From NCBI GenBank assembly GCA_963844535.1, contig CAWJOP010000002.1:668-64667 (forward strand): DNA of 64,000 nt, written 5' to 3'. Below are positions 4,280 to 43,360 of the stretch, piece after piece. Position 1 is the stretch's first letter. Each line of letters begins with the position of its first letter. The notes below the pieces were generated by a model. It saw nothing but the letters and a program-made list of their open reading frames with translations, was not told where the DNA came from and did not search any database. The stretch comes from an uncultured Gammaproteobacteria bacterium. GTDB taxonomy: Bacteria > Pseudomonadota > Gammaproteobacteria > CAWJOP01. The position numbers and the translations under genes were made by a program.

Positions 4280-4827
4280 GCCTTATGCTCCCATTTTTGA
4301 AATGAATGCTGTGAATGTTCAATATTTAGAATGCCAGAAGCTTTTTGCTGGTCTTGTGGAGTAGGGAAAAGCGCCATCTTAAAGACAAGAAACAATGTTA
4401 ATATAAATATTATTCGACCTAAACGATAAGAATTTTTGAATAAATAATTAGTAGTGGTTTTTGGTTTTATTCCTCGAATAGAGAGCCAGGCTGGGGAATA
4501 ATAAATGCTAATTTCATCCCCTTTATAAATAGGTTTTAATGCCTTAAATGTAATGAGTTGATTGTTTTTATCTCGGATCCATTCTGCATTTGGCAATTCG
4601 GCATGATTATAGAGACAGCCAAACCCTAATGGAATAGCGATAATATTGTCATTTTCCCACAGAAATATGTAATTTTTAAACTCATCTGGAACATCATTAT
4701 CTAGTAATAATACGGGACACTCTTCAATTGTCTCATCTTTCTTGAAATCTTTTGTTGCAAAAACTCCATATTTTGCAATCGTTGGACTACGAATTTCGAT
4801 AGCTGATTTAACCAGTCGATTTTTCAT
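4276..4827 (-). CDS. SET-domain protein (putative lysine methyltransferase) with a C-terminal transmembrane helix
   Basis: 183 aa. YGVFATKDFKKDETIEECPVLLL ... NHAELPNAEW ... GDEISIYY resemble the SET-domain GxG / NH / Y motifs. A hydrophobic segment IIFILTLFLVF lies near the C-terminus. Confidence 0.5.
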   Translation of the reverse strand: MKNRLVKSAIEIRSPTIAKYGVFATKDFKKDETIEECPVLLLDNDVPDEFKNYIFLWENDNIIAIPLGFGCLYNHAELPNAEWIRDKNNQLITFKALKPIYKGDEISIYYSPAWLSIRGIKPKTTTNYLFKNSYRLGRIIFILTLFLVFKMALFPTPQDQQKASGILNIEHSQHSFQKWEHKA

Positions 4828-4833
4828 AAAACA

Positions 4834-5106
4834 CTATTTTTCGATGATACTTTCCGGCAGCGTAATGTTGAGCGCAAGTGTAGCGCTATTTTCAGTTCGC
4901 TCAATATCAACCTTAACTTGATCTTTTTCAACAGGAATATATTTGGCAATAACATCCAATAATTCTTTTTGTAATAACGGTAAGTAGTCTGGGCCGTTTC
5001 TTCTTAATCGTTCATGTGAAACGATGATCTGAAGCCTTTCCTTTGCTAACGAAGCTGTTACTGATTTTTTTTGAAGAGTACGAATAAGATGATTCAACAT
5101 GTTCAT
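4834..5106 (-). CDS. minE: Cell division topological specificity factor MinE
   Basis: 90 aa. The start overlaps the minD stop. The conserved region [12 protein letters not shown] is present. Confidence 0.85.
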
Positions 5107-5936
5107 AAAGTAGCTTCCTCGCGGCTTTTGCTAGTGAATAAACGTTTTATAATTCCTTTCTTTTCCGTTTTTAAGAATCGGAATGGGATTTCTTCTTCAA
5201 GAAGACGCCCGACAGCATCTTTGTAAGCAAGACCGGCATCACTGGTTTCATCAAGAATAACTGGAATTCCAGCATTGGATGCTTTCAGCACAGCTTGTGA
5301 CTCGGGAATAACACCAATCAACGGGATGGCAAGAATTTCTTGGACGTCGCCAACGCTTAGCATATCTCCTCGATCAACTCGAATTGGAGAGTATCGAGTC
5401 AAGAGTAGGTGTTCTTTGACTGGAGGGAGATTATTTTCAGAGCGGGATGTCTTGCTTGCTAAAATTCCCAAAATTCGATCAGAGTCGCGAACAGACGAAA
5501 CTTCAGGGTTGGTAACTACAATAGCCTCATCCGCAAAGTACATAGCCATTAGCGCGCCTTTTTCAATACCTGCAGGAGAATCGCATATAATGTAATCATA
5601 TTCTTTTTTAAGCTCTTGGATAACTTGTTCTACACCTTCTAGTGTTAGTGCATCTTTATCGCGAGTTTGTGAAGCAGGTAAAATGTAAAGATTTTCAACA
5701 CGCTTATCTTTGATAAGTGCTTGATTTAGATTAGCTTCCTTATGAATTACATTAACAAAATCATATACAACTCGGCGTTCACATCCCATGATAAGGTCTA
5801 GGTTGCGAAGACCAACGTCAAAGTCAATAACGACTGTTTTAAGCTTGCGGCTTGCAAGCCCAGTTGCTATTGCTGCACTCGTGGTGGTTTTTCCTACACC
5901 ACCTTTTCCTGAGGTGACAACGACTACTTTGGCCAC
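5103..5936 (-). CDS. minD: Septum site-determining ATPase MinD
   Basis: 277 aa with the deviant Walker A motif [12 protein letters not shown]. Confidence 0.9.
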
Positions 5937-6070
5937 GGGTATTCTCCAAAAGTTAATATAAATTTAAGTTTAAGTTGATTAAATAACGGTTTTAGCAATC
6001 GAAATTACATAAACCCCGTATCTTACGGCAATACTAGCATTTTTAACAATAGTAAATAACTATTATTTGG

Positions 6071-7195
6071 CTAAATTTTAGGATTTTCGTGCTTGCCTGG
6101 CAAATTTTGTATAGCTTCTTTGTCTGCAACATATCCTAGAGTTCCGCGGCGAATTTGATCTAATTCCATTGCCTCAAATAATGCTTGAAGATTGTCTTCT
6201 CCCAATCCTTCGTTACCTTTTCGTTGAATAATTTCAAAAAATATTGGACCTAACATGGGCTGAGTGAAAACTTGTAGTAACAATTTAGATTTAGGTTGAG
6301 TTGTTCCATCAATCATGATGTGGTCTTTTTTTAGCCTTGCTAAGTCTTCATCGTGATTAGGTAGACGTTTTTCAACCATTTCATAATAGGTATCGGGCAC
6401 TTCTAAAAATGATACGTTTTGAGCAAGTAATTTTTCAGCAGTTTCATAAATATTTTCGCTTGTTAAAGCAATGTGCTGCACGCCTTCTCCGTGATATTCA
6501 CGTAAGAATTCTTCGATTTGTGATTTGTCATCCGAAGATTCATTAAGTGGAATTAGAATTTTTCCACAGGGACTGCTTATTGCTCGACTTTTTAAACCTG
6601 TCATTTTGCCGCTAATGTTGAAATAACGAATTTCATGGAAATTGAATAACTTTTGGTAAAAGGCAGTCCATTTGTCTATAGTCCCACGATGAATATTATG
6701 AGCAAGATGATCGATATAAATTAAACCAACATCATTGTCTTTAACGCTAATCTTCTCTTCTTGCCAAGGAAGAAAATCATACTCATATAGATGAGTAGCA
6801 TTTTCGTGGTCTACTAAATAGACTAGGCTTCCGCCGACCCCATAAATTGCAGGAATATTAAATCCTTCTTCATCACCGTAATAAGGTTTTGCTCCTAGTT
6901 TAATAGCTCTTTCAAAGGCGTAATTTGCGTCTTTTACCTTAAACCCCATGGCAAAAATAGATGTTCCATGTTGTTTTGCAGATTCAGTGGCTAAGCTGTT
7001 TTGCTCTTGGCTAATAAAAAAATTAATGTGGCCTTGTTGATAGAGAGTGACCTGTTTGGCACGATGTTTTGCTACGGCTCTGAAGCCTAATTTTTTAAGT
7101 TGTAAATATAATTTTTCTGGGGCTTTAGAAGCAAAAACAACAAAATCGAGACCATCAGTTCCCATTGGATTTTCGCGCGTTAGGTGTTCACTCAT
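6071..7195 (-). CDS. hppD: 4-hydroxyphenylpyruvate dioxygenase (legiolysin-like)
   Basis: HPPD-like sequence (MGTDGLDFVVFAS..., two VOC domains). I place the start at the internal ATG at 7195 (MSEHLTRENPMG...), which has an AAGGAA ribosome-binding site 8 nt upstream. The listed ORF extends 34 codons further upstream (to 7297) without support. Confidence 0.8.
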   Translation of the reverse strand: MSEHLTRENPMGTDGLDFVVFASKAPEKLYLQLKKLGFRAVAKHRAKQVTLYQQGHINFFISQEQNSLATESAKQHGTSIFAMGFKVKDANYAFERAIKLGAKPYYGDEEGFNIPAIYGVGGSLVYLVDHENATHLYEYDFLPWQEEKISVKDNDVGLIYIDHLAHNIHRGTIDKWTAFYQKLFNFHEIRYFNISGKMTGLKSRAISSPCGKILIPLNESSDDKSQIEEFLREYHGEGVQHIALTSENIYETAEKLLAQNVSFLEVPDTYYEMVEKRLPNHDEDLARLKKDHIMIDGTTQPKSKLLLQVFTQPMLGPIFFEIIQRKGNEGLGEDNLQALFEAMELDQIRRGTLGYVADKEAIQNLPGKHENPKI

Positions 7196-7333
7196 ATTAA
7201 AAATTCCTTGATTTAACTGTGTGTACTTAGAGAGTTTAGCGAAAATAATCGTTTTATTTAGAAAGTTTGGCCGAACGATTCTCTTTCGTTCGGCCAAAAA
7301 TTTTGCCCCATAGTTAAGCTAGGGACATAAGGC

Positions 7334-7705
7334 TTAGTTGCTAGTAGTAGAAGTAGCAGGCGCGGAAGATGACGCTGTGCTCATGGCAGACTGAGCGCTA
7401 GTGTCGGCAGGTGCTGGAGCACTTTGTTGTGTTGCACTATCAGTAGTACTGCCTGTTGCGGCAGCTGGAGCGGCAGCAGTTGCAGCTGTGTTAGCTGCTT
7501 GAGCGCTGTTTTGTGCAGCAGCGGCACTATTTTGAGCAGCCTGATCTGCTGACTGAGCAGTTTGAGCAGCTTGTTCTTGTGCTGGCTGTTCAGTAGTGGT
7601 GGTAGTAGTTTCGGTAGTAGTAGTTTCTTTGGATTGATTACCAGATTGGCAGCCAACCAAAGCGATTGTCATGATAGCTAACAGAAGTGCTTTTTTCATA
7701 GTCAA
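7334..7705 (-). CDS. Small lipoprotein with a low-complexity Thr/Ala/Gln-rich body
   Basis: Signal peptide plus lipobox MKKALLLAIMTIALVGC|QSG. The remainder is T/A/Q/S-rich and low in complexity. Confidence 0.45.
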   Translation of the reverse strand: MTMKKALLLAIMTIALVGCQSGNQSKETTTTETTTTTTEQPAQEQAAQTAQSADQAAQNSAAAAQNSAQAANTAATAAAPAAATGSTTDSATQQSAPAPADTSAQSAMSTASSSAPATSTTSN

Positions 7706-7715
7706 TTCCTATTTA

Positions 7716-7733
7716 ATTAACGTTAATTAACCT
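7716..7733. promoter_or_regulatory. Perfect 18-bp palindrome TTAATTAACGTTAATTAA just upstream of the lipoprotein gene start
   Basis: Seen directly in the sequence, 11 bp upstream of the ATG at 7705. Candidate operator or dimeric transcription-factor site. Confidence 0.35.
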
Positions 7734-7960
7734 AGGCTTCCTTGGCATACTTAACCAATTCACCTTTTAACAGGGCAAGATTAGCAAGTTTTTTAAAAAA
7801 ACGAAAGAATATTTTTGCTTATGTAGTAAGCATTAAAATTAATTGTCATTTTGTGGCTTTTATTTCGGGATCTAAATAGGGTTAAGTTCTATTAAGTTGT
7901 CTCGAACAAGATGCAATATGATAGTGGCGAAGAATGAAACTGCAGGAGGTCTAATAGAAT

Positions 7961-8809
7961 TTAGCTTAAGAGTTTTTGTAAGAGCCTGGCAACTCGATCA
8001 CGTAATTGACGACGGTCAATTACCATGTCAATTGCGCCATGCTCGAGTAGGAACTCACTGCGTTGAAACCCTTCAGGTAAGGTTTCGCGAACGGTTTGCT
8101 CAATCACGCGAGGACCAGCAAATCCAATTAAAGCTTTTGGCTCGGCGATAATGATATCTCCTAGCATAGCGAGGCTCGCTGAAACACCGCCCATAGTGGG
8201 ATCGGTTAATATAGAAATGTAAGGTAATCTTGCTTCGGAAAGTTTAGCTAGAGCTGCACTAGTTTTTGACATTTGCAATAATGAAATTAAGGCTTCCTGC
8301 ATTCGAGCACCACCGCTTGCAGCAAAACAAACTAGAGGAAGTTTACGATCCAAACAAAGATTAACGGCTCTTGCGAAGCGCTCTCCAACAGCTGCGCCCA
8401 TTGAACCCCCCATAAAACCAAACTCAAATGCGGTTACAACTAAAGGCATATTTTTTAATAGTCCTTGCATAACAATCAATGCTTCTTTTTCTCCAGTGGT
8501 TTTTTGAGCAATAGTTAAACGATCTTTATATTTTTTAAGATCCTTAAATTTCAGGTGATCAACTGCTTCTACATCGGCAGCTATTTCAACATCGGAGTCA
8601 GGATCTAAAAATTGTAATAAACGTTTGCGGGCTCCCATACGCATGTGATATTCACATTTAGGGCAAACCTCTAAATTGCGTTCTAATTCGGCGCGATAGA
8701 GAACTGCGTGGCAAGCATCGCAGCGCGTCCATAATCCTTCAGGAAATTTTTTTTTAGGATTGGTTATTGTATGGATGCGAGAAGGAAGTAACTTTTTAAA
8801 CCAGCTCAT
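7961..8809 (-). CDS. accD: Acetyl-CoA carboxylase carboxyltransferase subunit beta
   Basis: 282 aa. N-terminal zinc ribbon CDACHAVLY...[10 protein letters not shown]. Carboxyltransferase domain. Confidence 0.9.
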
Positions 8810-8850
8810 GTAGGTATCTCTCGTACAAAAATAAGTTAGGGAAGCAATTC

Positions 8851-9159
8851 TTAATCCGGCAAACTCTTAAAATCAGGGTTTTTCTTATATTCTGTTAAAA
8901 TATCTTCAACAATTTTATCAACGACACTTATTTTTTCTCGGTCAGTGATTATGCCATGCTCTTCTTTTAAAGTGTTTAATCGTTTTTCGACTAATTTAGT
9001 TACTGTTCCTGAAGGAAATAAAGTTGCTAGAATGCGCCTCGCTTCAATTGGGCCAATTCGCTTATATAGTTGATTTCGAATATTAGCATCTTCAACTGTA
9101 GTACTAAATGCCCATAACTCGATTGGACCGATAGTGCTAGTGAGTAATTGCGTATTCAT
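8851..9159 (-). CDS. Hypothetical protein, probably translationally coupled to icmB
   Basis: 102-aa soluble ORF. Its start overlaps the 3' end of icmB by 23 nt. No recognisable family. Confidence 0.35.
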
Positions 9160-29657: not shown

Positions 29658-30794
29658 TTAAAAATAATCTTGATAATTCATCACGCGAATTCTTTTATCA
29701 TAAGGAAATTCTTTTCCTCGATATAACAAATAACCTTGATCTCCTTTTTCCATAAATTCTTCCAGAGCATTTACCATCATCGGCTTAAAGGTTTCGCCGC
29801 TTTTAATTTCGATTAATTCTTTGTGAGTTTTCCGATCAATAATCAAATCAACTTCAGCGCCGTGGCTGGTGCGAATATAAAATAATTCTGCGTGTGTTTT
29901 ACGATGCAATTCACGTTTTAGAACTTCACTCACAATATAATTCTCAAAGATACTACCAGTCATGGGGCCTTGTTCAAATAACCGTGTTGAATGAATGCCA
30001 GTTAGATAGGAAACTAATCCCGTGTCATAAAAATAAATTTTAGGACTTTTTATGATCCGTTTACCAAAATTTCTGTGATAGGGGGGTAAAAGAAAAACAA
30101 TGTAAGAAGCCTCTAAAATGGAAATCCAGCGTTTGATCGTTTTTACATCAACGCCTAAATCAGTTGCATATCGATTAAAATTTAATTGCTGTGCAGTATT
30201 TGCGGCAAGCAAAGAAATCAATTGGCGAAAATCCCTTTTATCACCAATTTGAGCGAGTGCACTCACATCTCTTGTAATGTAGGTTTCTAAATAGGATGAA
30301 AACCAATCCGACGCCAAATGATATTTTTTATTGATGAGTTCGGGATATCCTCCTTGATAAATAGATTCTTTGCGTAGTGATTTTGGAACTTCAGTAATTT
30401 CATAAGGTAGCAACGATAATAAGCCAATACGCCCTGCCAACGACTCAGTAATGCTTTTCATTAAAGTGAACTGCGCGGATCCGGTTAAAACGAACTTACC
30501 ATAGGTTTGTCGGTTTTTATCGACCGCCAGCTTGATATGGTTAAATAATTCAGGCGCTTTTTGCGCCTCGTCAAAGATAACTTTATCCGCATATAACCGC
30601 ATGAATCTTTCAGGATCATGATAAAAAAAATTGAGCAATTGGTAGTCATCGAAGCTTACATATTGATAATCTTTTAACAAATGTAAAAGTAGGGTAGATT
30701 TCCCTGATTGACGCGGGCCAGTCAAACCAACTACAGAGAAATTCTGTAAATATTCCTGAAGTTTGCTTTCTAGTTGGCGGTGATGGTAGCGCAT
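29658..30794 (-). CDS. AAA+ ATPase of the DUF4143-type family
   Basis: 378 aa. Walker A GLTGPRQSGKSTLL near the N-terminus. Overall architecture typical of the ATPase (AAA) plus DUF4143 family. Confidence 0.6.
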   Translation of the reverse strand: MRYHHRQLESKLQEYLQNFSVVGLTGPRQSGKSTLLLHLLKDYQYVSFDDYQLLNFFYHDPERFMRLYADKVIFDEAQKAPELFNHIKLAVDKNRQTYGKFVLTGSAQFTLMKSITESLAGRIGLLSLLPYEITEVPKSLRKESIYQGGYPELINKKYHLASDWFSSYLETYITRDVSALAQIGDKRDFRQLISLLAANTAQQLNFNRYATDLGVDVKTIKRWISILEASYIVFLLPPYHRNFGKRIIKSPKIYFYDTGLVSYLTGIHSTRLFEQGPMTGSIFENYIVSEVLKRELHRKTHAELFYIRTSHGAEVDLIIDRKTHKELIEIKSGETFKPMMVNALEEFMEKGDQGYLLYRGKEFPYDKRIRVMNYQDYF

Positions 30795-37949: not shown

Positions 37950-39400
37950 AAAAATTAATTGTGATAGAGATTTTTGCCCTGTTGTTAACTGCATGCTCAT
38001 TTGCTCCAAAATATCAGTGTCCTCCTCCTATGCCAATTCCTGCTCACTATAAAGAATATAAAGGATCAGAAAAGTGGGTGCTTGCTAAAGCTATGCCACC
38101 TAGCAAGCGATGTGAACCATGGTGGGAACTATTTGATGATCCGGTTTTAAATCAGCTCGAAGCAAAAGTGATATGTGCTAATCAAAATTTACAAGTAGCA
38201 TATGCACGTTACAAAGAAGCACGCGCAGCCGCAGACGTTGCACGAGCAGCTTATTATCCCCAATTGATAGGAGTAGGAAACGTTGATAGACAACAAGTTT
38301 CTCATAATGTTGCTAATCCACAGCCAGTAAATTTGTTTAATGATTTTTTAATAGGCGCTGATTTAAGTTATGAAGTTGATGTATGGGGCCGGGTGCGTAA
38401 TGCAGTTGCTGCTAGTGAAGAGCGGGCGCAAGCTAGTGCATTTGATCTTGCGGCAGTTGATTTAAGTTTGCATGCCGAACTTGCTAATGATTATTTTGCT
38501 TTACGCGGCGATGAATTGGCTCAGTGTGTGTTAGATGAAACGGTGATTGCCTATCAAAAAGCATGGTATTTAACTAAAAAGCGTCATGAAGGCGGTAGGG
38601 TGTCAGAAGCGGATGTCGACGAGGCAGAAACGCAACTTGAGAATGCTAAGACGCTAGCAACAGATATGCGGTTAAAACGTGCGCAACTTGAGCATGCAAT
38701 TTCCGTTTTGATTGGAGAAATTCCTGCTAATTTTGTTATGCCAAAAGCGCAATGTAGCATGGCATTGATCAAGCTTTCTCCCAATCTTCCTTCTACATTG
38801 TTAGAATGCCGGCCAGATATTGCAGCGGCAGAGCAGCGAGTAGAAGCAGCTAATGCTGATATTGGTGTGGCGCGAGCTGCGTTTTATCCCGATTTTAATT
38901 TGGTTGCAATCAGTGGTTTTGAAAGCGCTAAGATATCCAACTTAATTTCTAAACCCAGTTTATTTTGGTCTCTTGGGCCCGCTGTGGCATTAACTTTGAT
39001 CCAACCGACAGTTACCCAAGTATTGATAGATGGTGGAAGATTGCGAGGATTACTCAATCAAGCAACAGCCAGTTATCATGAGGCGGTGGCTACATATCGG
39101 CAAACAGTGCTGACTGCTTTTCAAGAAGTGGAAGATAATCTAGTTGCTGTTCGAAGGCTCAATCAGGAGAATGGCACACAAACTGCAGCAACTGCCGCAG
39201 CGAAGCGTGCTCTGATTCAAGCACAGTATCGCTATCGTGGTGGTGTCTCAACTTTTCTTGATGTAGTAGTAGTAGAAAATGCTGCGTTGCAAGCCGAGCT
39301 TGCATCGATTGATATTCGTACACGTCGCCAGCTTGCAAGCGTGCAGTTGATTAAGGCGTTGGGAGGTAGGGTGGAGTGTTGTTTTAGAATTTCAGAATAA
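37946..39400 (+). CDS. Outer-membrane efflux lipoprotein (NodT/TolC family)
   Basis: 484 aa. Lipobox LLTACS. Two repeated alpha-helical/beta-barrel halves. Start overlaps the membrane-fusion gene stop (ATGA). Confidence 0.8.
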   Translation: MKKLIVIEIFALLLTACSFAPKYQCPPPMPIPAHYKEYKGSEKWVLAKAMPPSKRCEPWWELFDDPVLNQLEAKVICANQNLQVAYARYKEARAAADVARAAYYPQLIGVGNVDRQQVSHNVANPQPVNLFNDFLIGADLSYEVDVWGRVRNAVAASEERAQASAFDLAAVDLSLHAELANDYFALRGDELAQCVLDETVIAYQKAWYLTKKRHEGGRVSEADVDEAETQLENAKTLATDMRLKRAQLEHAISVLIGEIPANFVMPKAQCSMALIKLSPNLPSTLLECRPDIAAAEQRVEAANADIGVARAAFYPDFNLVAISGFESAKISNLISKPSLFWSLGPAVALTLIQPTVTQVLIDGGRLRGLLNQATASYHEAVATYRQTVLTAFQEVEDNLVAVRRLNQENGTQTAATAAAKRALIQAQYRYRGGVSTFLDVVVVENAALQAELASIDIRTRRQLASVQLIKALGGRVECCFRISE

Positions 39401-39406
39401 TGAGAA

Positions 39407-40042
39407 TTAGTCTATAGGGCCAATGATTTTACGTTTTAATGCATTAATTTTCTCAAATATATCAGTAATGTCTTGCTCAAAGTTTTGAGTTTCAAAGGTA
39501 GAGGTATTATTCGCTTTGGCGCTAACTAAAGCTTGTTTTAATAATCCATAGGTTTTTGTTAAATCTTCAATTGTTTTTTCAATTAAATTTCTGTCATTCC
39601 TTATTTGTATTAGTCTCTTAGAAGCTAAACGAAGTTTTTCTATGTTCCACTTTCCCTTAATCGTTTTCCCCTTCCAGGAAAAATCAGTTTGATCGATATG
39701 CTTTTCAATTTTATCTCTACGAGGGTTTAAAATAACTTCACATGAAAATTTTTGAGTATAGGTTGGCCAATAGTCTCCTTTATAAGCATTACAATCTCTA
39801 CAAGCATAAAGTAGGTTAGAATATTTTGCTGCTAATTTTGGGAATTTGCTTTTAGGTTTATAATGATCAATGTGAAAGGATTTTGAACCGCCAAGCTCTG
39901 GTTCGCGTGTTCCGCAATATACGCATCTATGGAAAAACTCTTCCCTAAGTTTTGATTTATAAATTTTATAATGATTGTCGTTTTTCATTCTCTTTTGCTT
40001 CAATGGGAGAAATTTCTTGCTGTGTGCTTGTAGAAGTATCAA
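39407..40042 (-). CDS. HNH-family nuclease (N-terminal HNH; C-terminal helical region)
   Basis: HNH motif CVYCGTREPELGGSKSFHIDHYKPKS...LLYACRDCNAYKG. The 5' end overlaps the upstream gene by 23-77 nt depending on the start chosen. Third gene of the three-gene minus-strand cassette. Confidence 0.65.
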   Translation of the reverse strand: MILLQAHSKKFLPLKQKRMKNDNHYKIYKSKLREEFFHRCVYCGTREPELGGSKSFHIDHYKPKSKFPKLAAKYSNLLYACRDCNAYKGDYWPTYTQKFSCEVILNPRRDKIEKHIDQTDFSWKGKTIKGKWNIEKLRLASKRLIQIRNDRNLIEKTIEDLTKTYGLLKQALVSAKANNTSTFETQNFEQDITDIFEKINALKRKIIGPID

Positions 40043-40568
40043 ACTGCGGAGCTCTTGTAGGAGTATCGAGTTCTGTAGGATTAATAAACGGGGGCTCAGT
40101 GGTATTTTTTGATTCTGTTGGAAGATAATGCGAATACTTTTTTAACTTTGCTTGAGCAAACAAAACAATCTTATTGAGTTCGTTTTCTTCAATAAAATTT
40201 TCTTTTTCAAGTTGATAAAGTAATAAATCTAGCTTATCAAGCTCAATGTCAATTTTAGCGAGCTTTCTTTTGTAATAAGGCAGAAAATATTTTAAGGGAT
40301 TATCCAGGATTTTATTGCGTGCTTGAATCAAAGGTTTTTTAAGGTTCATTATGTTTTCTATAATTTGTTCCTGGTTTTTCTCAAGTGTAATTGCAATTGA
40401 TGAAGATTCTAAATCACTTTTAGTTTGTTTAAGTAATGTGTCGGATTTTGATATGCTTAAACTAAAATCGTTTAACACCGGCTTTATTTTAGCAATATGT
40501 TTATCGGGATTCTGAAGTATCAGTTCTTTCGAGAGAGTGGTAGAAGCAAAATTGATAGAACTGGTCAT
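39966..40568 (-). CDS. Hypothetical coiled-coil protein with a Pro/Thr-rich C-terminus
   Basis: 200-aa ORF. Its start overlaps the stop of the upstream gene by 1 nt (TAATG). Predicted helical or coiled coil (LDKLDLLLYQLEKENFIEENELNKI). Confidence 0.45.
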   Translation of the reverse strand: MTSSINFASTTLSKELILQNPDKHIAKIKPVLNDFSLSISKSDTLLKQTKSDLESSSIAITLEKNQEQIIENIMNLKKPLIQARNKILDNPLKYFLPYYKRKLAKIDIELDKLDLLLYQLEKENFIEENELNKIVLFAQAKLKKYSHYLPTESKNTTEPPFINPTELDTPTRAPQFDTSTSTQQEISPIEAKENEKRQSL

Positions 40569-41323
40569 TATTCAACCTCCATTAGGTAACGTAGTTTTTC
40601 AGTAATGATCGTTTCAAAAACACTACTAAGTATATTATGTGCCTGAGTTGCAAGAGAAAGTATTTTGTTTTGTACAGGGCTAATTTCTGTGGTTGTATAG
40701 CAGTCAATATCGAGGATAAATCTGTTACCTATTTCTCCTGGTTTTAAAGCATCTGTCATGAATTTGGTTCGTATTTCAAAATTTTGATCACATTGATTTT
40801 TATCGGTTTCTATTTCATTAAGTAGTGTTAAGTCAAGACCTTTTAAATTGGAAAGCGAGGAAGGGATTTGAAATCCTAAACAAAAATAGTCAGAGAGATT
40901 AATTTTTTCTTCAGGAATTAAAAAGCTATTAATATACCTGGTTGCTACTCGTGTAACGTTAGAAGGTTTTGCTAAGTCAATGTAGGCATTAATTGCAGCA
41001 TAAATTGTTTCACTAAAGTTTTCCCAAGAGGTATATCTTAAACAATTAGCAACTACTATCCCTGGCCCAACTTGCAGTAATTCAGTGCCATCTTCTTTGC
41101 AGGCTTGAATTGAAGGTGCTTGTATAGGGGGAGTATTGTGAGAAGCGCCTAAAAAAACAGAAATGTGTTTAATATCCTGTTTTTTTGGATATAGTTGTCT
41201 TACTTTCTCAAAAAATTGGCCAGGAATGGCTGAATCAAAACCTGCATAATCAAACTTTACTTCAAAAATTGCTTCTTGAATTGCAGGTTTTTTATACTTG
41301 CGCCTAATTGTTTTATTGTTCAT
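40568..41323 (-). CDS. Uncharacterised protein resembling the TIGR04255 family
   Basis: 251 aa. N-terminal YKKPAIQEAIFEVKFD and the internal ...TRYINSF motif recall the TIGR04255 consensus. This assignment is from memory and has not been searched. First gene of the cassette. Confidence 0.45.
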   Translation of the reverse strand: MNNKTIRRKYKKPAIQEAIFEVKFDYAGFDSAIPGQFFEKVRQLYPKKQDIKHISVFLGASHNTPPIQAPSIQACKEDGTELLQVGPGIVVANCLRYTSWENFSETIYAAINAYIDLAKPSNVTRVATRYINSFLIPEEKINLSDYFCLGFQIPSSLSNLKGLDLTLLNEIETDKNQCDQNFEIRTKFMTDALKPGEIGNRFILDIDCYTTTEISPVQNKILSLATQAHNILSSVFETIITEKLRYLMEVE

Positions 41324-41399
41324 AACAAATACCTAGGTTAATTTTAACAATGGTATATCATAGGCCAATACCGTATCAAATAGGTTATGATTTTTATCT

Positions 41400-42641
41400 A
41401 TGAAAATCTTTAAAAAATTTATTTCTCTTGAAGCTGCTGGTGGGTATTGTCTGTTTTTGGCAGCTGCGATTGCCATTTTATGGAGCAATTCGCCTGTTCA
41501 AGCAAGTTATGATGCGCTAATCAATGCAAATTTTATATTTAAGAGCAAGACTTTAAATTCAGTAGTGCCAATTTCTTTTGTTATTGATGAAGGATTGATG
41601 ACCTTATTTTTTTTTCTGGTCGGGCTTGAAATTAAGCGAGAATTGCTCATAGGAGAATTAAATAGCGTTAAAAGAGCCATGTTGCCCGCAATTGCGGCAT
41701 TAGGTGGTATGGTCATTCCAGCAATGATTTATGTTGGATTAAATTGGAATAATCCTGTAGGCCTTGGTGGCTGGGCAATTCCAACTGCTACCGATATTGC
41801 TTTTTCTTTAGCAGTATTATCATTATTAAAAAGTCGAATTCCCTTAAGTCTTAAAATATTTTTAACTGCACTAGCAATCTTTGATGATTTAGGCGCCATT
41901 TTAATTATTGCAATTTTTTACACGCAAAAAATTTCTTGGCTAGGGTTAGGACTAGCGTTTTTGGTTGAAATGATTTTGGTGTTACTTAATATTTTTCAAA
42001 TAGCTCTACCAATATTGTATTTTTTGTTAGGGGCTTTAATTTGGTGGCTATTATTAGTTTCAGGAATTCATCCAACTTTGGCTGGGGTATTAGTGGCATT
42101 AACAGTGCCGCTAAAAATTCAAAAAGCTCCTCGAGCTCGGCCACTCAATGATTTACAACGCGCCTTGCATCCTTGGGTAATTTTTTTATTATTGCCACTT
42201 TTTGCTTTTATTAATTCAGGGATATCGCTAAATAGTTTGTTTGGCACTTTATTTACTAACGTTTCGCTAGGAATTTTTTTTGGCCTTTTTCTCGGCAAAC
42301 AATTAGGCGTGATGAGTTTTTGTTGGGTTGCAGTACAAAGTAAATTAGCTGAATTGCCAGCGGGAATGAATTGGAGAAATCTTTATGGAATTAGTTTGTT
42401 ATGTGGGATTGGTTTTACCATGAGTTTTTTTATTGGCTTTTTATCTTTTGAAAACGGATTATTTGATTATCAAGCCTGTCTTCGATCAGGCATTTTGTTG
42501 GGATCTTTGTTATCGGGGATTTGTGGGTATGTTTGGTTGGTTTTTGTTTCGAAAAAAAATGTTGGCATTGATGGTTCCCAGGGCAAATTTGATCGTTTGC
42601 GAAAGCCGAAGCAGTCATTTGTTGAAGAATTAAACCTATAG
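41400..42641 (+). CDS. nhaA: Na+/H+ antiporter NhaA
   Basis: 413 aa. ~12 TM helices. Conserved ...AIPTATDIAFSLAVLSLL... and LTALAIFDDLGAILIIAIFYT regions (the catalytic Asp pair). Confidence 0.85.
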   Translation: MKIFKKFISLEAAGGYCLFLAAAIAILWSNSPVQASYDALINANFIFKSKTLNSVVPISFVIDEGLMTLFFFLVGLEIKRELLIGELNSVKRAMLPAIAALGGMVIPAMIYVGLNWNNPVGLGGWAIPTATDIAFSLAVLSLLKSRIPLSLKIFLTALAIFDDLGAILIIAIFYTQKISWLGLGLAFLVEMILVLLNIFQIALPILYFLLGALIWWLLLVSGIHPTLAGVLVALTVPLKIQKAPRARPLNDLQRALHPWVIFLLLPLFAFINSGISLNSLFGTLFTNVSLGIFFGLFLGKQLGVMSFCWVAVQSKLAELPAGMNWRNLYGISLLCGIGFTMSFFIGFLSFENGLFDYQACLRSGILLGSLLSGICGYVWLVFVSKKNVGIDGSQGKFDRLRKPKQSFVEELNL

Positions 42642-42827: not shown

Positions 42828-43360
42828 TAAGTGTCATTCCCGAGAAGACGCACTAGTGTCCTGGGATGCTGTATAATAAGCAAACGGGCTGTTTTTCTGT
42901 AAAAAAATAAAAATATACATCCCCTCTCCCAGTCCGAAAGCATAAAAAAATCTTCAAACTTTATTCTGGGAGAGGGCCAGGGTGAGGGAGATCGAATAAA
43001 TTTTGCTATCTCTTCTCTAGTTCAGTTAAAACGATATCTAGTATTTCGTCCACATGAAAGACTAATCATTTCTTGTCGCTTAAATTTATAGCCCTTTAAT
43101 CTTCTATTTCTTAAAAAGTACCACAATTGAGTTTCTGCTTCAGTTGCTTTTTTCTTAGTACCTTCGCATGATTTATTGGTTGTACCATTTTGTGGTTTCC
43201 CCTCACCCTGGCCCTCTCCCAGAATAAAGTTTGAAGATTTTTTTATGCTTTCGGGCTGGGAGAGGGGATGTATATTTTTATTTTTTTACAGAAAAACAGC
43301 CCGTTTGCTTATTATACAGCATCCCAGGACACTAGTGCGTCTTCTCGGGAATGACACTTA
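42828..43360. repeat. 533-bp foldback element: two 161-bp inverted repeats (1 mismatch) flanking a 211-bp non-coding spacer
   Basis: 42828..42988 is the reverse complement of 43200..43360, differing at one base (cagTccg vs cagCccg). Each arm also holds its own hairpin (CCCCTCTCCCAG...CTGGGAGAGGG). No ORF longer than 60 aa lies inside. Confidence 0.7.

Follow-up and report, generated by a model that had tools for sequence, protein, structure and literature searches.

A conserved three-gene cassette joining a TIGR04255 protein to a PtuB-like HNH nuclease is a candidate mobile defence module

A cassette of three minus-strand genes (g1, g2 and g3) was analyzed in a 64,000-nt stretch of DNA from an uncultured Gammaproteobacteria bacterium (assembly GCA_963844535.1, contig CAWJOP010000002.1, positions 668 to 64,667; hereafter the window). 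The genes encode a TIGR04255-family protein, a small helical protein and a PtuB-like HNH nuclease. A prior reading of the nucleotide sequence without database searches (the sequence-only reading) had put the genes forward as a defence or toxin system not yet described, and this proposal was supported by conservation of the trio, by an empty site in a near-identical genome and by mobile-element and defence-island contexts elsewhere. The cassette is best explained as a defence module of three genes, self-contained and horizontally mobile, that would act by abortive infection or as a toxin, a function proposed from these data with a probability of about 0.55.

Organization of the cassette

The three open reading frames (ORFs) were present at 39407-41323, as first reported. 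g1 (40568-41323) encodes an acidic protein of 251 aa (isoelectric point, pI, 5.75), the proposed regulator or sensor. g2 (39966-40568) encodes a 200 aa helical protein belonging to no family, the proposed adaptor. g3 (39407-39988 from its ATG start) encodes a basic protein of 193 aa (pI 9.5), the proposed effector or toxin. The g1 stop and g2 start share the sequence TAATG. g2 and g3 overlap by 23 nt if g3 starts at this ATG or by 77 nt if it starts at an upstream TTG (39407-40042), the two values originally given; the ATG at 39988 was favoured because the N-termini of orthologs support it. The flanking loci are an RND efflux operon (ACR_tran, MFP and OEP, with OEP as the last gene) and nhaA.

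Two sigma-70-like sites were located on the minus strand upstream of g1, at 41379-41350 and 41368-41341. Both lie in a 76-nt region (41324-41399, minus strand) which is designated a putative promoter from its position, the number of sites not being above that expected from shuffled sequence. A scan for promoters and terminators likewise gave nothing beyond shuffle expectation.

Insertion at an empty site

A 25-kb Joint Genome Institute (JGI) contig (L035) was found through a relative of the nhaA protein of at least 90% identity. Both of its flanks are ∼97.7% identical to the window and g1, g2 and g3 are all missing from it. Alignment of the two sequences with blastn showed that homology stops at 39377 and restarts at 41400, and the stop codon of OEP in L035 overlaps the start of nhaA. 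The break therefore defines a clean indel of 2,022 bp (39378-41399, without strand) comprising the three genes and the 76 nt upstream of g1, and nothing more. The GC content of the insert is 31-34% and that of the efflux operon 40-44%, with nhaA also at only ∼35%. No terminal repeats, target duplication, tRNA, integrase or transposase were found at the insert borders. The cassette is a horizontally acquired accessory insert, and the defence interpretation is strengthened by the occurrence of the empty site in so similar a genome.

Conservation of the three genes

Co-localisation of the trio was checked in 17 assessable loci, and the order g1-g2-g3 was intact in 15 of them. A further locus, L026, was left out of the count as its sequence stops 377 nt past g2. 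Intact trios were recorded in the window, L001-L007, L010, L011-13, L027, L028, L036, L037 and L038. The hosts are Legionella qingyii, L. lytica, L. pneumophila, Fluoribacter dumoffii, Gammaproteobacteria metagenome-assembled genomes (MAGs), a Bdellovibrionales MAG, Chlamydiae and Waddliaceae MAGs, and unassigned metagenome or read-assembly contigs. The association is taken to exceed chance, the trio being kept together in different phyla. In each of the 12 loci measured, g1 and g2 share 1-16 nt.

The genes are strictly co-inherited. Pairwise-identity matrices of g1, g2 and g3 correlate with r values of 0.84-0.90 (Mantel p about 2e-4), at mean identities of 44% for g1, 42% for g3 and 28% for g2, the fastest evolving of the three. 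The family sizes are comparable (60 representatives for g2, ∼76 clusters for the g1 subclade). The trio is common to Legionellaceae, Chlamydiae (Waddliaceae) and the Bdellovibrionales MAG at 39-60% g1 identity, a distribution which hints at cross-phylum exchange among what are largely bacteria that live inside, or prey in, protist-rich habitats.

Two loci are decayed. L014 retains g1 alone. L025, which is metagenomic, retains g1 and g2 intact and has an internal deletion in the HNH gene (7196-7440), of which the first 52 codons, a stop and a remnant of the last ∼25 codons are left; judged from this deletion, it is a natural effector-dead copy. No HNH gene without g1 was found among the loci examined, and both decayed loci had lost the HNH gene. 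Loss of the nuclease and never of g1 fits a toxic effector.

The HNH nuclease

The product of g3 matched the Pfam HNH family PF01844 with an E-value of 9.3e-8 (32.5 bits against a gathering score of 21.4). Its best match to the PADLOC PtuB1 profiles had an E-value of 2.3e-23 over residues 10-161. Scores against NCBIfam were under the cutoffs, at 39.8 bits against 150 for PtuB and 38.1 against 52.15 for TIGR02646; on these scores g3 is placed in a PtuB-like branch and is not a curated PtuB member. A profile of 12 g3 orthologs searched against the PDB retrieved PtuB chains only, from Septu (8ee7) and from type I-A retrons (9l7p, 9nnb, 9vh1 and 9kjx). The match is confined to the HNH core and the best matches are the retron I-A chains.

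The HNH motif described in the sequence-only reading (C22-x2-C25, H39-I-D41-H42 and C63-x2-C66-N67) was located in full, together with N58 and K70. These residues span a beta-beta-alpha-Me core with a Cys4 zinc knuckle (g3 residues 22-70; 39779-39925, minus strand). Across the 12 orthologs C22, C25, H42, N58, C63, C66, N67 and K70 are invariant, D41 is nearly so (D or E) and H39 varies. As the catalytic and zinc residues are conserved, the predicted nuclease looks active. Models of the PADLOC candidate PDC-M01B also matched g3, over approximately residues 5-80 (mainly the HNH core) at E-values of ∼1e-11. No cassette protein matched PDC-M01A, so the PDC-M01 pair is incomplete. A check for housekeeping identities returned only the function-less TIGR04255 family for g1 and defence-type PtuB HNH profiles for g3.

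The TIGR04255 protein

The TIGR04255 label given in the sequence-only reading was borne out by an NCBIfam match with an E-value of 1.6e-38 (133 bits, cutoff 30). Residues 9-247 align to positions 1-250 of the 252-position profile hidden Markov model, making g1 a full-length member. NCBIfam (June 2026) names g1 by family alone and labels the family a 'sporadically distributed protein', without a role. For g1 there was no significant Pfam match and no PADLOC match, and the PHROG match was weak only. The g1 subclade is sharply bounded, its members scoring at least 210 bits to their own profile and other TIGR04255 members at most 63 bits. No mention of TIGR04255, IPR026349 or CHP04255 was found in the papers searched, and a paper on the TBP superfamily does not mention TIGR04255.

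The AlphaFold2 model of g1, calculated from an 86-sequence alignment, has a predicted local distance difference test score (pLDDT) of 92.5. The predicted fold is a curved antiparallel sheet with long helices behind it and a two-fold pseudo-symmetry. TBP was the top meaningful match in a Foldseek search with this model, with probabilities of 0.96-0.98 and template modelling (TM) scores of 0.3-0.4. A fold search of the BFVD gave unnamed and giant-virus TBP-like proteins only. Proteins of the TBP-domain/helix-grip superfamily are built from two S1-H1-S2-S5-H2 repeats forming a saddle with a basic, concave DNA-binding sheet. Guanido kinases (phosphagen kinases and McsB) and ligases of the glutamine synthetase (GS) fold carry ATP-binding arginines and a catalytic Glu or Cys. 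These classes share topology, and the modelled fold is ambiguous between TBP-like and guanido-kinase/GS-like. Median pI values are 5.6 for g1, which is consistently acidic, and 9.3 for g3, which is strongly basic. The acidity of g1 argues against DNA binding of the TBP type.

The helical protein

No match to g2 was obtained in Pfam, NCBIfam, PADLOC or PHROGs. A word-indexed search returned g2 itself as the sole match. The 60 relatives were recovered by an exhaustive phmmer search of 1.84 billion representative proteins, and the full-length ones are ∼130-170 aa. The AlphaFold2 model contains a helical hairpin (residues 66-123, pLDDT ∼97) with floppy ends, and a g2 profile searched against the PDB returned GCN4-type coiled-coil noise only. 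The sequence-only reading had described a coiled-coil protein with a P/T-rich tail; the helical character and the tail were upheld, and the coiled-coil matches were weak.

The tail is a P/T/E-rich C-terminal segment (residues 151-200; 39969-40118, minus strand) which runs into the start of g3. It is predicted to be disordered (pLDDT 54-61) and is unique to this genome, being missing in all 26 aligned homologues (133-167 aa). The segment resembles a read-through into g3 that is specific to this lineage, probably owing to a lost stop codon, and accounts for the unusual g2-g3 overlap in the window. Elsewhere the end of g2 lies between 31 nt before the g3 start and a 1-nt overlap in 10 of 11 loci; in the other, L007, the overlap is 23 nt.

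Genomic contexts elsewhere

The L. pneumophila trio is carried as cargo on an island that also holds an integrase, a Toprim primase, an AAA_25 protein, a small-terminase-like gene and helix-turn-helix (HTH) regulators, a layout like that of P4 or phage-inducible chromosomal island (PICI) satellites. The L. qingyii trio lies behind an S24-family repressor, at the edge of the F-type tra genes of a conjugative element. In F. dumoffii the trio is beside a resolvase in a strain-variable island, and neighbouring genes matched the PADLOC candidates PDC-S19 (E-value 4e-70), PDC-S15 (2e-19) and PDC-S31 (2e-14). One F. dumoffii arrangement (L011) carries a dGTPase-like HD protein and a TumE/HVO_A0114 pair. 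Comparison of L011 with L012 and L013 over 4500-9900 showed that the region to the left of the trio differs, the other arrangement having PDC-S31-like and PDC-S19-like genes. The trio and resolvase are thus constant beside variable genes, as in a defence hotspot. In L037 ParE/YafQ, an AAA_14/DUF4143 gene and insertion sequence (IS) elements lie near the trio. Carriage on the satellite-like island, at the edge of the integrative and conjugative element (ICE) and in the variable island with PADLOC candidates adds further strength to the defence interpretation. This proximity to defence genes was observed at individual loci (the F. dumoffii flanks and the distant TIGR04255 relatives described below) and is anecdotal. 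The neighbours of the trio in L036 and L038 are ordinary chromosomal genes, as they are in the window.

Comparison with known systems

PtuB is an HNH nuclease dependent on its partner PtuA (PMC12819146). It serves as nuclease both in Septu and in type I-A retrons, and the PtuAB complex nicks DNA. Retron Ec78/Eco7 (PtuAB) causes loss or cleavage of cellular tRNA-Tyr, and Septu is reported to cut the tRNA-Tyr variable loop (PMC12819146 and published abstracts).

The cassette shares with Septu (PtuA ATPase and PtuB HNH) its PtuB-type nuclease, matched by PADLOC PtuB1 over ∼150 residues, and g3 has the signature H-I-(D/E)-H-(Y/F)-x-P-x-x-K-F-P-x-L...N-L in common with solved PtuB structures. In both systems the nuclease gene comes last in an operon that is small, mobile and tightly coupled, and in the cassette it is presumably partner-dependent. 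The partners differ. No ABC, AAA_15 or AAA_21 ATPase was found in the cassette or adjoining any of the 15 intact loci. The place of PtuA is taken by the TIGR04255 protein and a helical protein of 135-165 aa, neither of which has an NTPase motif, and no match of g1 or g2 to PtuA or another ATPase was obtained in Pfam, NCBIfam or PADLOC. The ATPase gene closest to the trio within the window (AAA_14/DUF4143, 29658-30794) is ∼8.6 kb away and of another type. Septu was rejected as the identity of the whole system, PtuA not being present. The statement in the sequence-only reading that the trio could not be matched to Septu therefore holds for the system and fails for the nuclease, which is a PtuB relative.

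Type I-A retrons (Ec78/Eco7: reverse transcriptase (RT), non-coding RNA (ncRNA) with multicopy single-stranded DNA (msDNA), PtuA and PtuB) use the same nuclease branch as g3 and share the idea of a PtuB effector re-wired to different upstream sensors. Identity with a retron was rejected: no RT ORF lies in or beside the cassette, PtuA is missing and the 76-nt upstream region is too short for an ncRNA. No Rfam family reached threshold in the window and no tRNA was found near the insert, so that the insert is neither a tRNA-targeted island nor a retron.

The cassette resembles multi-component toxin-antitoxin (TA) and abortive-infection modules in general in being small, mobile and translationally coupled, in pairing a basic nuclease with an acidic partner and in having decayed copies that lack the nuclease. 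It differs from them in that none of its components matches any toxin or antitoxin family known. Nothing on the trio was found in literature searches on Legionella defence and HNH proteins or in a domain-centric discovery paper.

The wider TIGR04255 family

Within the family at large only the g1 subclade is coupled to g2 and a PtuB-like HNH protein, the distant members having unrelated partners. These members (22-27% identity) are the first genes of short operons in which the genes often overlap and the partners lack annotation; no Pfam or NCBIfam family was found for the partners. Distant TIGR04255 genes lie beside VapBC, a methylase and cas6 on a Thermus plasmid, beside a recombinase and AbiJ on a Methylocystis plasmid, and beside a multiubiquitin/ThiF/DUF6527 system on a Rhizobium plasmid. 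A universal g1 and g2 core was considered and dropped, since hhalign comparison of g2 with the second genes of the distant operons gave probabilities below 1%. In this small sample TIGR04255 seems to be the constant leading component of operons whose other members vary.

A distant TIGR04255 gene was also observed near the genome end of the P2-like Ralstonia phage YO139_2 (L021 194-2061; 34.5-36.4 kb of the record). The two small genes that follow it weakly match PADLOC PDC-M32A and PDC-M32B. This location suggests that the family also rides in phage hotspots.

A broader and distinctly more speculative proposal is that TIGR04255 proteins as a whole are an unrecognised and widespread class of invader sensors or regulators, placed at the head of short operons, with a compact TBP/GS-like alpha-beta fold that lacks an NTPase and with interchangeable effectors. 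In the present cassette such a protein would replace PtuA and gate PtuB independently of ATP. This generalization is regarded as doubtful.

Proposed mechanism and alternative explanations

In the proposed mechanism g1, g2 and g3 would be made from one translationally coupled transcript, and g1 and g2 would hold the basic g3 inactive in a complex; in place of PtuA, they would both restrain the nuclease and trigger it. The g2 hairpin would act as a helical adaptor and the acidic g1 would neutralise or sense. On detection by g1 of an invader-derived cue, such as a ligand or a protein of a phage or conjugative element, g3 would be released or activated. As the effector it would damage nucleic acid once unleashed, by nicking DNA or depleting tRNA if it behaves like PtuB, and activation by an invader would thus end in nucleic-acid damage and growth arrest, and presumably in protection. 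The charge complementarity of g1 and g3 may be counted in favour of such a defence module.

Several observations weigh on the other side. In the window and in two Chlamydiae loci the trio has ordinary chromosomal neighbours and no defence island. The 17 assessable loci are a small sample of independent loci, several of them from related Legionellaceae. The fold of g1 does not indicate a clear sensing mechanism, and no match in PADLOC v2, which covers known and candidate systems, was obtained for g1, g2 or any TIGR04255 protein tested. No g1 relative was found among 2.9 million viral contigs. Few phages are known for the hosts, most of which are intracellular bacteria living in protists, and the natural targets may be plasmids or ICEs rather than phages.

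The best-surviving alternative is an addiction module resembling toxin-antitoxin systems, in which the HNH protein is a toxin, g1 and g2 form a labile antidote and the main role is to stabilise the carrier element or region. Carriage on the satellite-like island and at the ICE edge would suit this role, as would the adjoining TA genes (TumE/HVO_A0114 in L011, ParE/YafQ in L037), the pairing of an acidic g1 with a basic g3, the tight translational coupling and the nuclease being first to go in decayed loci. However, the lone chromosomal inserts of the window, L033, L034, L036 and L038 leave it nothing to stabilise, and three components with a highly conserved first gene of 250 aa would be unusual for a simple antitoxin. 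It is rated as unlikely. Many TA-like modules are defence systems, and addiction and defence are only partly exclusive.

Another explanation, judged improbable, takes g1 as an enzyme with a minimal glutamine-synthetase/guanido-kinase fold. Aided by g2, as McsB is by McsA, it would phosphorylate or ligate a target or make a signal that controls the HNH protein.

A selfish homing-type cassette, in which the HNH protein cuts the empty site to promote its own insertion and g1 and g2 are accessory mobility factors, would explain why the 2-kb indel is clean and has neither an integrase nor a transposase close by. g3 has PHROG HNH matches, and free-standing phage HNH genes are often homing endonucleases. 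Yet the insertion site is different in every genome, the junctions have neither target duplication nor terminal repeats, g3 falls in the PtuB branch rather than in known homing families, and two conserved partners are atypical of homing endonuclease genes; this origin is judged very improbable. A housekeeping function in DNA repair or recombination, or mis-called functionless genes, is scarcely credible: the window flanks are housekeeping genes, but the trio is sporadic across phyla, missing from a near-identical genome, low in GC and carried on mobile elements, and each of the three ORFs encodes a conserved protein, with motifs intact.

Significance

If the defence module is real, it would be a new system in which a known PtuB-type HNH effector is joined to two new control proteins and no ATPase. 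There would then be at least three arrangements into which the Septu nuclease has been re-wired: with PtuA, in retrons, and with TIGR04255 and g2. It would also give a first function to TIGR04255, a family annotated by NCBI in bacteria, archaea and phages for more than 10 years without a role; the trio already gives this family its first functional context. Candidate defence systems of this kind are now found in large numbers. Here a defence-type module circulates in two groups of bacteria that live inside protist cells, the Legionellales and Chlamydiae, whose immune repertoire and invaders (ICEs, satellites and rare phages) are poorly known. At 2 kb, and with a natural empty-site control, the module is easily tested.

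Other features of the window

A second strain-specific difference between the window and L035 lies 1.5 kb from the cassette, just downstream of nhaA. In the window this site holds two inverted repeats of 174 nt each (42828-43001 and 43187-43360), 96% complementary and 185 nt apart. The counterpart in L035 (11280-12443) holds a gene of 387 aa with a weak DUF4351 match. The repeat pair may be a palindromic element or one resembling a miniature inverted-repeat transposable element (MITE).

The lone AAA_14/DUF4143 ATPase gene of the window (29658-30794, minus strand) is positioned between shikimate dehydrogenase and ankyrin-repeat genes. These two neighbours adjoin in L035, with only a 45-aa ORF between them. 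The ATPase gene looks like another single-gene accessory insert, and is of the same type as the gene near the trio in L037.

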